Shown here: in pieces, positions 5,694 through 44,545 of the stretch | Layout of the letters: every line of letters starts with the position of its first letter | Numbering within the stretch: position 1 is the first letter of the stretch | From: Felis catus | Lineage: Eukaryota | Assembly (NCBI RefSeq): GCF_018350175.1 | Contig: NC_058374.1 | Span: forward strand, 89,528,001 to 89,592,000 | Direction of reading: 5' to 3' | Length of the DNA: 64,000 nt | The notes under the pieces: model-generated | What the model was told of the DNA's origin: nothing | Databases searched by the model: none | Seen by the model: only the letters and a program-made list of their open reading frames with translations | Program-made: the position numbers and the translations under genes

Positions 5694-6373
5694 ACGGCAA
5701 ACAAGATGTGGGATAATTCATTGCATATAAACTATCCAGGACACTGCAAGCTATCTAGTATACACGACCTCTGCCCACCAAGTGCCAATAATGCCACCCC
5801 TTTATTGTGACATTTAAACACACACACACACACCATATCACATAAATGCCCTCCTGCAGGGCGGAACCTCTTCCAGTGAGACCATCGGACAGGAGCATCA
5901 GGGGAAAGCCTAAACTGAATTTTGAAGAACTGCTAGGAATTAGCCAAGTACGTAGTAAGTGCCCAAAATTATTTGTTAAATCAGTGAAAGAAGCCTGGTT
6001 TTCAATCCCATTCCCATTTATTTCTTGAGAAACTGTAGCAGTGTCTAAATTGAAGCTGTCTTTTGCCATAAGCTGGAATAGAATTCTGTATAATCAGCAC
6101 GTAAGGTGGAAATCACCAGAAGGCTACCTAGCACCTTAGAACGGCAGATGTCTGATACACGGCTGCAGGCACCGTGCCATCTTGGTCTCCTGAACATGCA
6201 GAGCCTAAACAGTCATGTGAGATGCCATCATCATGCGTATACGTTCCACAGACTGTGAACTTAACACACGATTGCTTTTGCTGGCCTGTCTGCTTTGAGC
6301 TGAAGTGTGTGTGCTTCTATACGTTAGTGCGAACTTATCAGTCTGTTCTGCCTCTCTGGTGATTTGTCAACAG

Positions 6374-6751
6374 GATATTGAAGAGACGATGAACACTGCT
6401 TTGAACGAACTCCGAGAACTGGAGAGACAGAGTACCGCAAAGCACGCCCCCGATGTGGTGCTGGACACCTTGGAACAAGTGAAGAACGCGCCCACCCCCG
6501 CCACGTCCACAGAGTCTCTCAGCCCTTTGCACAACGTTGCCTTCAGGAGCTCCGAGCCTCAGATCCGACGCAGCACGAGCTCCTCCAGCGACACAATGAG
6601 TACTTTCAAGCCTATGGTGGCACCCAGGATGGGTGTGCAGCTAAAGCCCCCAGCCCTTCGGCCAAAACCTGCCGTTCTTCCAAAAACAAACCCTACCGTG
6701 GGACCGGCCCCACCTTCCCAAGGTCCAACAGACAAGTCTTGCACGATGTAA
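6374..6751 (+). CDS. SRGAP1: SRGAP1 last coding exon (DIEETMNTALNEL...TDKSCTM-stop)
   Basis: Acceptor caacag|; characteristic srGAP1 C-terminus; TAA at 6749-6751. Confidence 0.97.
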   Translation, partial: DIEETMNTALNELRELERQSTAKHAPDVVLDTLEQVKNAPTPATSTESLSPLHNVAFRSSEPQIRRSTSSSSDTMSTFKPMVAPRMGVQLKPPALRPKPAVLPKTNPTVGPAPPSQGPTDKSCTM

Positions 6752-9700
6752 ACTCCAGATGAGCAAGGTCCTGTGGGGCGGTGATTTAAGAAACAAAACA
6801 AAACAAAAAACGGATCATTGACAAAAGTCAGTGATCCTTAACTTTCCTTAGTTTTGTGCTTATAACTGGAGATTTTTGGCTTTTCTATGTTCTTGAATGT
6901 AATGTCGGAGACTAGCTAAATTAACACGGGCATTTGTATTTTGTAATTTTCTTCCTTTTTTCTTAGTAACTGGACATATGTCATTTTAAAGACAATAGAA
7001 ACACTTAGATTTACTTGAAAATCCAATGCTGCACCATTTGTCACGAAGGCCACACCACTCTGCTCTCCGCGTCGTTCGGCGCTTCAGGTTTAGTGTAGCC
7101 TGGGTGAGTCGGAAATGTCTGGATCCAAAGGCACAAGCGTCTGAAGTCGCAGGCCGTGGAGTATAACCAGTGTTGGTCTGTGGCGCTTGGGGGGAATGGC
7201 TGGAAAGTGGTAACGGCATTGTTGGGTAGCTGACAGCGAGTACCTCTGAGTCCGTGCAGTGGGACGAGGTCCCACTCGTGCCCAGGCTTGCAGTTGTCAC
7301 GGTGGGACGTGCCCGGTGGGACTCTCAGCCCACTGCCTGAATGAGTTGCATGGTTGCCCCTTTCATACGAGTCACTTCCCTGGGTCCAGATTAAAAGCTC
7401 AGAGGAAGGGGTCGGACCCTCTGCAGTTACTTCTTGAACGGAACCTAGAAAAGGGCAAAGCTAATCCTCCAGAGCTATCGATGTGACTCCTTCCTCAAGC
7501 CTGGTCAGGCCCCCGAAGACTTCCAGGTCCGTCCTCTGCATTCACAAAGGACTAGAACAGTCTAATTGTAAAGACTTCCTGGTTATACTCCTCCACAAGT
7601 TCCTTCAGAGGTCTGTTACAAACTGCCTAGAAAATACTTCCAGCTCCCCTAAACCCCTGTGTTCTCCTGTGGAAATGGAGAACGCGGGCAGCACACAAGT
7701 CCTTGGTTCGCTCAGCCTTCTCTCCCGACTAAATGACCTCGGTTCCTTTAAACCCGATACAGAGGCTTGATGACCCTAAGGTGACTCCCCAGCTCTCCTC
7801 TCCCATTGGCCTCTTGGAGCCAACCAAGAACTGGCTGTGGTACTGGAGTAAGAGCCATGCTGGCCAAGGTGGGGGGGGGGGGGGGGTCACATGGTTCCAG
7901 GAGGAGTTCCTTCCAATTTTGCACCCTGGAACCATGACTTTTTTCTTTCCTTTCCAGGTGGTCTCAACATAACCCAGATAGTCAGGTGAGCTCCGTAAGG
8001 TACCCTCTTTCTCTGACATCCTGGCACAGAAATCATTTTCTCTGTGTTTTCCCACTGTCTTAAAAAGGTTGCTTTGAATTCAGTTGTTTTTACTAAGGTA
8101 CAAATCACCACTTCTGCCCAGCAGCAGCTTATATCGTGTGTAAACCTATGAGCATGTTTTCTGCTCTGACCTTGAACTTAAAGAGAATTTTTTTTTTTTT
8201 TTTAGATAAATGGGTGGCCCAGAACTAACTCCTCTCGACCACCATTGATTTCCTTCTAGCTTTGGTTTCAAACTGGAAGCCATTTGCCTGCCCACCTAAG
8301 AGTTGCACAGTATGGACTTGAATCTGTTAGCCCGCTGGTGAATGCCTCAGGCAGGAAAGAATGAGGATCTGTACTAGAATATCAAGATCATTCCTGGGAT
8401 CTCTCCCTCAGTTTGCCAGTCTAATCGTTGTAATGCAGAGAGAGATTAAATTAATGACGTAGGGTTACCTTTCAAAGTCACACTTCTGATTGCCAACCAG
8501 TGGCCTAATTCCACAAATGGATTGAATCGAGATTTTTTTTCCAAGTATCCAGGTATGGTAAGCTTTTAAATCTTTGAGGTTTCTGAAGCATCCGTTTTGC
8601 CCATTGTGAAAACGATGCCCAGTTCAGCATCTTCTCTACCCCCCTGCCATTTCCCTTGAGCTTTAGTGGTCCTTCATCAACTTTAGACACCATGGAGACT
8701 CAGCCAGGATTGAGCTCTGAGTAGCACTAACCCTTTTAAACAATCTTCCCAAATTCCTAGGAAATTGAAACCTTGCTGAATAACCTCCCAGTTCTTTCCA
8801 GAGTCCGCTTGGGTTTCTAGTTCTCTGCTGCTAGATGGGGAAACAGAAGCCGAGAATAAAGATGGAAGTAATGGAGGAGGAGACTTTAAATCTTCTAGAA
8901 ATTGAAATGAAAAGGATTGTTAAAAACGGTTTTTCCATCGATGGTGCAAGAGTAAGATGTAAACAGAGGGTTTCAAAAGGGCAGAGGGGTGTCTTCTACA
9001 AGTTTTAACTTAGATCTTACTCCTACAAGTTCATGTCTTCAGATTTCTCCCTGGCAGTCCTGCCCAGACTCTCCCCTCTTCAGTGTTTACACCGCTGATG
9101 AAATGAGGGTTGCCTTTCCAACCACCAAATTAGGATTCTGCTCCCTTAGGTGGCTGCTCTGGGGCCTCAGAGGCTGTGCCTTCTTGCAGGAAATTTCTAA
9201 TGCTCCCCCATCACTGCCTTACCCATCTCTCTCTCTTCTCCCTATACCCCTGTGACACCTTGAGGCCTTCTTTCTTTTTTTTTTTTTGTTTTTTTTTCCA
9301 GTCTTTTTTATTTGTTCCAATTCCCATAGAAGGACATGACCTCACAGGGAATAAGGATTCACCTATTCTTTCTTTGTTTTGGTAAAAGTCTTCAGATTCC
9401 CGGGAAAAGACAAGGTGGCCACTTCACAGAGGATCCAAAATAACACCCTGAAAGCTCATTAAAAGCTTCTGGTGCATTCGCCTGGTGCATGGCCTTCTCT
9501 ACAGCCACACATCTAGTGGGGAGGAGGAAGCATGCAAAGGGTGGGGAGGAAAGGAAGAATCCTTGAGATGTTACGCCCCCAGTTTCAAGGATCATATTGT
9601 TCTTCGTTCACAGTTTGGCAAGGGGGTCATTTTGATGATGGGCAGACGATGGTTCTACAAAGATGATCAGACTCCACTTATGCAAGAATATATATTCACA

Positions 9701-41700: not shown

Positions 41701-42140
41701 GGGGCACCTGGGTGGCTCAGTCGGTTAAGCATCCAGCTCGATTTTGGTTCGGGTCATGACCTCACGGTTTGTGAGATTGAGCCCCATGTTGGGCTCTGAG
41801 CTGACAGTGTGGAACCTTCTTGGGATTCTCTCTCTGCCCCCCCCCCTCTGCCCCTCTCTCTGCCTTTCTGTGCTCTCACTCGCTCACTCTCTCTCAAAAT
41901 AAATGGATACACTTAAAAAAAATTGAGGGGTGCCTGTGTGGCTCAGTCAGTTGAGCTTCCGACTCTTGGCTTTGGTTCAGGTCATGATCTCACGGTTTGT
42001 GGGTTTGAGCCCTGCATCGGGATCAATGCTGTCAGTGTGGAGCCTGCTTGGGATTTTCTCTCTCTCCCTCTCTCTCTGGCCCTCCCCCACTTGTATGTTC
42101 TCTCTCTCTCAAATAAACTTTAAAAATGAAAAAAAAAATA
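41701..42140 (+). mobile_element. Two tandem Can-SINEs (41701-41922 and 41926-42140)
   Basis: Two heads and two A tails. Confidence 0.9.
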
Positions 42141-42534
42141 GATTTAATAAATTTTTAAAAACCTGAAGTTCATACTTTCAAATGCTTTCAAAACTGGGTC
42201 AGAGACCACAGGGGTATGTCCTGGCTTCCTGAGGCATGGGAAAAAGTGACTAAGTGGAATTAGTGAGAAAGATATTAGAAACTAGGGGAGAAACCAAGGG
42301 AGGAAGGGAAAAAGCAGAGGCAAATCATCAACGGTAATTAAGAGATAAGAAAATTAACCGTGAGGAAGAAATAAAGGAAGATCATAACATTTACATAAGT
42401 GTCTTGTGATAAGGGGAAAGATGGCTGCCTTGTTTCAAATTAGGCAAAAGGCAGAAATCCTCATAAATTCTTACACATTTCTTTTAAAACTCCCCAGTGT
42501 CTGTAGAAGATCCTAAACAACAAGCTCATTATTT

Positions 42535-42643
42535 TTTTTAAGATTTTATTTTTTTAAGTAATCTCTACACCCAACGTGCCCGAACTCACAACCCCAAGAT
42601 CAAGAGTCTCGTGTTCCACCGACTCAGCCAGCCAGGTGCCCCT
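42535..42643 (-). mobile_element. Short Can-SINE, left arm of the hairpin
   Basis: Antisense short SINE with its own TSD a(g/a)ctcattattt (42523-42534 and 42644-42655). Confidence 0.9.
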
Positions 42644-42668
42644 AACTCATTATTTGAACAAGTGGCAA

Positions 42669-42774
42669 GAGGTGCACCTGGCTGGCTGAGTCGGTGGAAC
42701 ACGAGACTCTTGATCTTGGGGTTGTGAGTTCGGGCCCCACGTTGGGTGTAGAGATTACTTAAAAATGAAATCTT
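42669..42774 (+). mobile_element. Short Can-SINE, right arm of the hairpin; tail split by the RPS3 retrocopy and resumes at 43628-43654
   Basis: TSD-like aacaagtggcaa (42657-42668) and aaaaactggcaa (43655-43666). Confidence 0.88.
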
Positions 42775-43627
42775 GCCTTGCCTTTCAGAGGTACACAGCA
42801 GCAAGATGGCAGAGCAAGTTTCCGAGAAGAGGAAGTTCATCGCTGATGACGTCTTCAAAGCTGAACTGAACGAGTTTCTCACTCAGGAGCTGGCTAAAGG
42901 CGGCTCGTCCAGGGTTGAGATCCAAGTTACACCAACCAGGACAGAAATCAGTATCTTGGCTATCGGGGCACGGAATGATCTGGGTGAGACAGGCTGGCAG
43001 ATCCAAGAGTTGATCCCTGTAGTTCAGCAGAGGTTTGGTTTCCCGGAGGGCAGCATAGAGCTTTATGATGAAAAGGTGGCCACAGGAGGTCTGTGTGCTA
43101 TTGCCCAGGCAGTCCCTACGTTATAAAGTCCTAGGAGGCCTCACCGTGTGGAGGACCTGCTATAGTGTCTTGTGGTTCATCATGGAGAGTGGGGCCAAAG
43201 GCTGTGAGCTTGTGGTGTCTGGGAAGCTCCAAGGACAGAGGGCTAAATCCATGAAGTTTGTGGATGGCCTGATGACTCACAGTGAGGACCCTGTTAACTA
43301 GTACATGGACACTGCTGTGTGCTGTATGCTGCTCAGACAGGGCGTGCTGGGCGTCAAAGTGAAGAGCATGCTTCCGTCAGACCCAAGTGGTAAGTCTGAC
43401 CAAGTGGTAAGAATCCCCTGCCAGATCATGTGAGCATTGTGGAACCCAAATATGAGATACTCCCCAGCAACCCCATCTCGGGACAGGAGGGTGGGAAGTC
43501 AGAGCTCCCTGCCATGCCTCAGCCAGTACCCACAATGTTAACAGGGTCTCCGTGGCAGCTGCATCTGGAGTTTGGATTTTGCTCTGTAAAGACCTTTAAT
43601 AAAATCTTTGAAAAAGAAAACCAGAAT
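42775..43627 (+). pseudogene. RPS3: Full-length processed pseudogene of ribosomal protein S3
   Basis: ATG 42806 ([11 protein letters not shown]...), intronless to PQPVPT; frameshift at ~43112, TAG at 43299-43301, second frameshift at ~43395; pyrimidine 5' leader, AATAAA 43598-43603, A-rich tail, TSD aaaat(g/a)aaatctt. Confidence 0.97.
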
Positions 43628-43739
43628 AAAATAAAATCTTAAAAAAATTAAGATAAAAACTGGCAAAAGAATCGAGCCCTTCCTATAGGAACTGTTCTTT
43701 AATATAACCAAATAGACGTAAAGTTTATTCTCATAGAAG

Positions 43740-44545
43740 TATTCCACCTAACAAATGAAAAAGGAATGACATAATTAGAATATCACTGTTTTGTAACCTC
43801 TAGTGATATAATTGATCCAGGTAATGCCACATATTAGCTACCTCCAAATAAAATACACAATAGTCACTACAAAAAAAGAAAGAAAGAAAGAAGAAAGAGA
43901 GAAAGAAAGAGAAAGGAAAAAGAAAAATCTGATCAAACCTCTTGATCTAACTTCCAACATAAAGAAAAAAAAAAAAGATAGAAAAGCATGATCACTGATA
44001 GCTTAAGGATACCATCAGCAAAGTCCTGACTGTAAAAACTTCATAGGTATGAAATAAACTAAACACTTCAGTCAAGAGGCGGAGATTGTCAGATTGCAGA
44101 GCAGAGTTGGCTATTGCTCTTTGTAATCAGTATTCTCTCTTTATTTCTTACTGTAGACACTTTAAAAATTAAGATACAAATAGTGAGAGGATAGGGAAAG
44201 ACATACCATATGAACAGTCAGCAGAAACAAACTGGAAGGGTCATAAAAATATCAGGCAAAATGTACTTCAAAACAAGGAGTAGTGATGGAGATAAAGTAG
44301 GAAACTTCACAATGATAAATGGTCAATATGTGAGAAAGAAAAATTGTGAATGTATATGGGCCTAATAAGGGCTTCAATATACAAAAGGCAAAAAGCTGCA
44401 GAAATAAAGGAAGACCTCTACAATCACAGTTAGATTTTAACACACCTCTCTTGGTAATTAAAAGAGCACCTAGATCCCCTCCTCCCCCGAAAATATCAGT
44501 AAGAATATAGAACTGAATGATGCTATCAACCAAGCATAAGAATTT
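43740..44545 (+). mobile_element. Decayed L1 fragment including an ORF2 endonuclease-region remnant
   Basis: cacaatgataaatggtcaat and gattttaacacacctctc motifs; no open frame. Confidence 0.7.

Follow-up and report, generated by a model that had tools for sequence, protein, structure and literature searches.

The locus considered here raises one question: how did two old SINEs, inserted separately and head to head, come to form an almost perfect hairpin? It lies in a stretch of 64,000 nucleotides (G000:C16:89528001-89592000), whose SINE content suggests a cat-family genome and which is referred to below as the window. It is probable that one arm was overwritten from the other by local copying that happened once and recently, most likely through a fold-back template switch, and that what is left is likely a neutral scar. 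The pair is a clean, well-dated new case of a known phenomenon, the homogenisation of inverted-repeat arms. A minimum age can be set from one genome, thanks to two independent target-site duplications (TSDs) and a nested retrocopy, and for this reason copying after insertion, over nearly the whole SINE, is hard to escape.

Structure of the hairpin and sequence check

The left arm (42551-42643, 93 nt) pairs end to end with the right arm (42670-42765, 96 nt) at 92 of 93 positions, plus one 3-nt bulge. The sole mismatch, C42640 against T42673, is the fourth pair counting from the loop, and three C's at 42735-42737 of the right arm are missing from the left arm, which is also without them when compared with the family consensus. 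Two blocks can be distinguished, 42578-42643 with 42670-42735 (66 nt, one mismatch) and 42551-42578 with 42738-42765 (28 nt, perfect). An earlier sequence-only reading of this DNA had described a 93-bp stem with a 26-nt loop, one mismatch and one 3-nt indel, and realignment bears this out. Folded as RNA, the segment 42520-42800 reaches -200.4 kcal/mol (z = -26), a value equalled by 0 of 200 shuffles, and the DNA hairpin is very stable (-121 kcal/mol). All 92 hairpin pairs are Watson-Crick and none is G-U. The features of the locus are the following.

42523..42534, no strand: left TSD, outer copy; direct match 11/12 to 42644-42655
42535..42643, minus strand: left SINE, short tRNA-Lys-type carnivore element with intact A-rich tail; left arm 42551-42643
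42644-42669, no strand: loop, 26 nt; inner left TSD (42644-42655), 1 nt and inner right TSD (42657-42669) in un-swapped order; spanned by X11 record 1 with 0 differences
42670..42774, plus strand: right SINE body and start of its tail; right arm 42670-42765; private G>T at 42673
42676..42765, no strand: putative homogenised tract, given as positions of the right arm; derived letters common to both arms at 42688, 42696, 42699, 42702, 42704 and 42733
42762-42774, no strand: 5' TSD of the RPS3 retrocopy, overlapping the right SINE; 12/13 match to the 3' copy
42775..43627, plus strand: processed RPS3 retrocopy (Pfam PF00189) inside the right SINE tail; carries a frameshift, a stop codon and an A tail
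43628..43640, no strand: 3' TSD of the RPS3 retrocopy; 12/13 like 42762-42774
43641..43654, plus strand: remainder of the right SINE A-rich tail
43655..43667, no strand: right TSD, outer copy; 10/13 like 42657-42669

Both arms belong to a short SINE family which we take to be CanSINE, the carnivore tRNA-derived type, in its short form; features of this type are present, namely a tRNA-Lys-like body, an A-rich tail, a TSD and many dispersed copies. The tRNA-Lys(CTT) reported by ARAGORN at 42675-42749 within the right arm was rejected as a tRNA gene and read as the tRNA ancestry of the SINE. The two elements are oriented head to head, 26 nt apart, and their spacer is built of TSDs. Compared in direct orientation with its own flank, the left half agrees at 11/12 positions and the right half at 10/13, as against only 6-8 for swapped or reverse-complement alternatives, so the spacer carries no net inversion. 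Retrotransposon-mediated inversion, which predicts swapped TSDs around the spacer, was rejected on this ground. Both TSDs are decayed, and the claim that each arm has its own is upheld; together with the nested retrocopy they also support the view that the elements are old and were inserted separately. Identity of the arms ends within the A-run, beyond which the tails differ (A7 vs A5, TAAAATC vs TGAAATC, then A-run vs RPS3), the left one being an intact family tail and the right one a tail cut by RPS3. It follows from these tails that neither arm is a fresh retrocopy or a fold-back duplicate of the other's present form.

The assembly was set beside independent short-read contigs. X11 record 1 (94 nt) covers 42610-42703 with 0 differences, a span that takes in the loop together with the adjoining 34 nt of the arm on either side, and holds the shared variants at 42676, 42688, 42696, 42699 and 42702 in phase with the loop. 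On either side this contig breaks off exactly 30 nt beyond the arm-specific mismatch; the assembly graph behind these contigs has k = 31, and such end points are expected of a 31-mer graph if the arms are identical there. X18 record 24 is identical over 42752-42900, and arm-specific differences are retained in the assembly. Mis-assembly of one arm from the other, a hazard raised in the sequence-only reading, is excluded by X11 record 1 over the 34 nt next to the loop in both arms; for the middle and outer parts, none of the contigs listed gives confirmation arm by arm. The loop contig has a depth of 9.2, in comparison with 20-33 for the other X11 contigs listed, and none of the contigs listed spans the whole hairpin. 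Among the pieces listed for X19, a run labelled as another organism, only other SINE copies were met, and the loop 21-mer had 0 occurrences in JGI metagenome contigs. X11 record 6 (224 nt, depth 24.8, that is single-copy) fits 42677-42766 with only 2 differing letters and carries 128 unrelated letters upstream, with no counterpart in G000; a chimeric contig and a polymorphic third copy are both conceivable.

Age of the arms and their place in the SINE family

The right arm had been claimed to be older than the RPS3 retrocopy, and this is confirmed by the nesting of the retrocopy in the right SINE tail. The intron-bearing RPS3 parent has its exons at G000:C21:56.83 Mb, and over 42960-43610 the retrocopy differs from them at 80 of 625 bases. 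With the polarity of changes set by five other RPS3 retrocopies as outgroups, 51 changes belong to the retrocopy lineage and 24 to the parent (5 ambiguous), and the own-lineage change of the retrocopy amounts to 8.2%. Since the right arm is older than this, unconverted arms are expected to be at least 16% apart. The observed difference is 1 of 90 aligned sites (95% interval 0.03-6.0%) plus one indel, and the probability of at most 1 difference in 90 under the clock is 2e-6, or 1.6e-5 with the indel counted. The latest copying between the arms would fall roughly within the final 7% of the time since retrocopy insertion, with an upper bound of about 37%. The substitution rate is near 2e-9 per site per year; at that rate the copying would have happened about 3 My ago (at most about 15), as against about 40 My for the retrocopy. 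At 43383-43411 the retrocopy contains a 12-nt direct repeat with 17-nt spacing, which coincides with a 5-nt insertion relative to the parent exon. At least eight more intronless RPS3-like copies, 68-86% like that of the window, are present in G000 (C22, C2, C15, C39, C1, C21, C18 and C37).

For local comparison, 28 other short copies were taken from 264 kb around the locus, one long-type hit being dropped. They are on average 25.6% apart pairwise (sd 4.8, minimum 13.0%, 378 pairs), and the arms are about 22% different from them. All 28 lie 9.8-25% from the consensus, so the family looks inactive; the arms, with 5/73 and 6/76 non-CpG changes, are found at its less-diverged end. The four window copies named in the sequence-only reading are 79-85% like the right arm, in agreement with the greater divergence claimed for them, and three further copies were found in the window.

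The arms share five derived non-CpG letters and one transversion at a CpG site. These variants had been said to be absent from the other short copies in the window, which is true of their combination, private to the arms, and not of each variant singly: among the 28 local copies A42699 is found in 5, G42696 in 6, G42733 in 2 and C42702 in 1, while G42688 and A42704 are found in 0. Across the genome, exact occurrences of the shared 20-mer are confined to the two arms, with 4 further places one mismatch away, and the 90-nt right arm has 0 other places in G000 within 3 mismatches. A common source subfamily was rejected for G000 as the cause of arm identity, because the 20-mer is private and nothing lies within 3 mismatches. 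The outer 25 nt carry no derived letter and are consensus-perfect in both arms, a state seen in 0 of the 28 local copies and 0 of 40 other arms, and are for that reason probably part of the copied tract. Three of the eight consensus CpG sites are retained in the arms, and at least three are reached by 2 of the 28 local copies. Both arms also carry A>G at 42733, which by the B-box consensus of the SINE promoter is the B-box A.

Other SINE pairs in the genome

Sampling of short pairs started from 37 head-to-head loci, of which a loose filter retained 24 and a strict short/short filter 15; the 22 dropped are other SINE types or less than 75% like the consensus. Scored off the search motif, the identity of the window pair is 0.987, in comparison with a cross-locus mean of 0.730 (sd 0.046, maximum 0.862; 420 comparisons). 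The remaining 13 short pairs have a mean of 0.740 against the same 0.730 (permutation p = 0.054). Long SINEs in head-to-head pairs with such spacers give 1040 matches to one pattern in G000; the first 50 of these, all on contig C1, have a mean of 0.692 vs 0.701 across loci (p = 0.90), and 0 of the 50 beat their best cross-locus match. Among tandem short pairs, 12 of 19 loci passed the filter with a mean of 0.748 (cross-locus 0.752), and the single tail-to-tail pair differs at 15 of 78 positions. The excess identity in close inverted pairs which had been proposed as a genome-wide signature is thus absent or marginal. General homogenisation of such pairs was rejected, as 13 of the 15 short and all 50 long pairs look like unrelated copies.

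Two loci nevertheless deserve separate description. L029 (G000:C47:42583931-42584158) is a second head-to-head short pair with arms 0.875 alike and a spacer of about 60 nt that contains a tandem duplication; a 2-nt insertion is common to both of its arms, as is a 23-mer with no other exact match in the genome. It is likely to be an older arm-to-arm copy, co-insertion from the same source being the other possibility, and a tract-boundary test gave p = 0.138, not significant. L132 (G000:C1:49801720-49801789) is a pair of long SINEs, head to head, with a spacer that forms a near-perfect palindrome; this spacer's right half is an inverted copy of the left element's TSD, with no match to the downstream TSD of the right element, and the locus is likely the scar of a short fold-back template switch. 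When the ascertained window pair is set aside, whole-arm copying is found in 1 of 14 short and 0 of 50 long pairs. To judge from these sequences, arm-to-arm copying at head-to-head junctions does happen, but rarely.

One tandem short pair, L097 (G000:C47:32151341-32151403), is 0.905 alike off the motif, above the cross-locus maximum of 0.873, and has one shared non-CpG variant only.

Origin of the arm identity

Near-identity in the face of a clock of at least 16%, together with the private 20-mer, leads to the view that one arm was recopied from the other, and such arm-to-arm copying after insertion appears well supported. The sequence-only reading went further and held the arms to be kept identical by hairpin conversion or template switching. 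Copying long after insertion stands; upkeep does not follow, since one event gives the same picture. The substrate would have been an imperfect inverted repeat with a short spacer, made up of two SINEs with decayed TSDs beside an old retrocopy; its imperfection is inferred from the clock, and the identity expected before copying is about 75-84%.

According to the preferred reading, a nascent strand would copy one arm, continue across the loop and into the second arm as far as its conserved first 15 nt or so, and then fold back, during replication or during repair of an extruded hairpin. The folded strand would take the first arm as its template, priming just past the mismatch at 42673, and synthesis would run for about 60-90 nt to the A-run where the tails differ, after which the strand would return to its template. 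The 3-nt loss in the left arm could be slippage in a G/C run during this synthesis. A fold-back switch that started from these first 15 nt or so agrees with three features, namely a loop that is not inverted, a single mismatch only four pairs away from it and an end of identity at the A-run. A right-to-left direction is weakly favoured, because no later mutation is then needed. Hairpin-guided recombinational conversion fits the un-inverted loop too; an earlier identity of about 75-84%, below the optimum of 89-100%, makes classic recombination less likely relative to the fold-back switch. L132 counts in favour of the switch, as a second fold-back-type scar at a head-to-head junction. Against it count the tract of about 60-90 nt, long for a short-range template switch, and the CpG retention of 3/8, a weak hint of repeated GC-biased repair or of a younger donor. 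The hairpin is likely a neutral mutation scar.

The hairpin is situated between convergent genes. On the minus strand, the C12orf66-like gene KICS2 (Pfam PF09404) has its stop 5.3 kb from the hairpin, with 13 A[AT]TAAA hexamers between. The plus-strand gene has an exon at about 6299-6754 and ends about 36 kb from the hairpin; the Pfam FTZ and Atlas hits of this exon were uninformative and gave it no name, and the gene is presumably SRGAP1. As the two arms face outward, Pol III transcription of either would yield RNA with a single arm. Read-through dsRNA as a substrate for ADAR or Dicer had been suggested, and this is unsupported: the hairpin lies behind the 13 hexamers, and the 8 hits of an Rfam scan of the hairpin are all below gathering scores. 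An RNA role of the hairpin and its ongoing maintenance are alike unsupported.

Among the competing explanations, it is rather unlikely that concerted evolution is recurrent and self-reinforcing, with a near-perfect hairpin that extrudes often and arms that are repaired from each other repeatedly and are identical in each lineage. The stability of the DNA hairpin (-121 kcal/mol) speaks for such recurrence, as does the report that yeast template switches recur at the same inverted repeats (PMC8604942), and the retention of 3/8 CpG sites, matched by 2/28 local copies, is its only hint in the locus; yet one event suffices, the loop-side mismatch and the 3-nt bulge are still present, and the loop is without net inversion. 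L029, provided that it was ever homogenised, is by now down to 87.5%, its spacer being about 60 nt, and there is no general excess of identity (13 short pairs p = 0.054, 50 long p = 0.90). A distinctly unlikely extension is a ratchet, in which a rare switch perfects head-to-head arms and repeated GC-biased self-conversion follows across the cat family, in the manner of Y palindromes, keeping a dsRNA or small-RNA precursor 5 kb downstream of KICS2. It is barely credible that the arms became or stay complementary through selection for a functional dsRNA, miRNA or siRNA precursor: the shape is miRNA-like, the sub-threshold Rfam hits include mir-9080 as the best (56 bits vs a cut-off of 100) and template switches are reported to have seeded miRNA genes (10.1101/2023.04.19.537475), but 92 pairs that are all Watson-Crick, with no G-U, point to copying and not to stepwise selection, and the hairpin lies between genes, with 13 poly(A)-like hexamers ahead of it. 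Without recurrence or expression the hairpin is a mutation scar of a known class; many public cat-family genomes make one switch and recurrent conversion cheap to distinguish.

Other explanations concern the origin of the arms themselves. The left SINE could be a younger insertion from elsewhere; conversion of the old right arm would then have come from its cDNA or from the newly formed hairpin, upon insertion or shortly afterwards. This is very unlikely. The arms are indeed less diverged (5/73 and 6/76 non-CpG changes) and keep more CpGs, the left TSD has one mismatch only and X11 record 6 could be a third near-identical copy; nevertheless G000 holds no near-identical source, the family looks inactive with 28/28 local copies 9.8-25% from consensus, and the shared A>G at 42733 hits the B-box A. 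An assembly or polishing artefact, by which the letters of one arm were copied onto the other, is highly improbable. It would agree with the lack of 13-14% of the sampled words from 41900-43800 in 14/14 DNA-type runs of organism A, with the low depth of the loop contig (9.2 vs 20-33) and with the failure of the contigs listed to span the whole hairpin, but X11 record 1 has both inner arms and the shared variants in phase with the loop at 0 differences, X18 record 24 is exact over 42752-42900 and arm-specific differences survive in the assembly. That either arm was made from the other, as a de novo inverted duplicate or a recent retrocopy, is extremely improbable. The near-identity itself and the occurrence of fold-back copies in this genome (L132) could be cited for such an origin, against which stand the own decayed TSD of each arm, the intact family tail on the left beside a right tail cut by RPS3, and a first T4 run downstream of the right arm only at 43577; moreover, the right arm contains an old retrocopy and cannot be a recent copy.

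The preferred reading, a single fold-back switch, has counterparts in known systems. Short-range template-switch mutation was reportedly described by Loytynoja and Goldman in 2017. Template switching between non-identical inverted repeats is reported to homogenise their arms, the spacer being inverted only if the switch is intermolecular and occurs during the first arm (PMC8604942, Abraham and Hazkani-Covo 2021). The window pair is similar in that an imperfect inverted repeat with a short spacer becomes near-perfect and the spacer is unchanged; it differs in that its arms are two separately inserted retroposons. Template-switch tracts reported from great apes have a median of 12 nt and a maximum of 128 (PMC7954356, Walker et al. 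2021), and the window tract of about 60-90 nt is far above this median and under this maximum. Non-allelic gene conversion between neighbouring Alus is reported to be strongest at short distance (Aleshin and Zhi 2010, as cited in PMC8230782, PMC3670932), and conversion of neighbouring SINEs is stated to favour a donor-acceptor identity of 89-100% (PMC8230782, Doronina et al. 2021). As in Alu conversion, neighbouring SINEs share non-diagnostic mutations here (0.987 vs 0.730 cross-locus); in contrast to it, nearly the whole element is replaced, the pair is inverted and 26 nt apart, the SINE is a carnivore tRNA-derived one and the starting identity is below that optimum (PMC8230782). Y-chromosome palindromes likewise have inverted-repeat arms homogenised by arm-to-arm conversion, with rare inversion of the spacer (PMC3723533), but their arms measure many kb and their recurrent conversion has been demonstrated, whereas the window arms are of 93 nt and apparently do not belong to a Y-type palindrome.

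In dog, close and near-identical inverted SINEC_Cf pairs are reported to be depleted (10.1101/2020.10.27.358119), and close inverted pairs of high identity are rare in this genome as well. Unlike the dog pairs, the window pair is a rare survivor whose identity was apparently gained after insertion and not inherited from youth. Near-identical inverted SINE pairs, normally depleted, can therefore also arise late, from copies about 20% apart, and such copying would distort the dating of SINEs and make perfect hairpins in one step. Among the literature titles searched, none concerned this locus or whole-element homogenisation of head-to-head SINE pairs, which is a weak result, as subscription journals were missing.

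Head-to-head Alu pairs peak at spacers of 24-36 bp, treated as an insertion preference (PMC3215922, Cook et al. 2011); the terms 'gene conversion' and 'homogeniz' have 0 hits in the main text of that paper. The geometry of the window pair, with its 26-nt spacer made of two TSDs, is like theirs. Most head-to-head spacers in the present sample have a TTTTAAAA-like centre, a site nickable on both strands, and such a centre would explain the head-to-head geometry.
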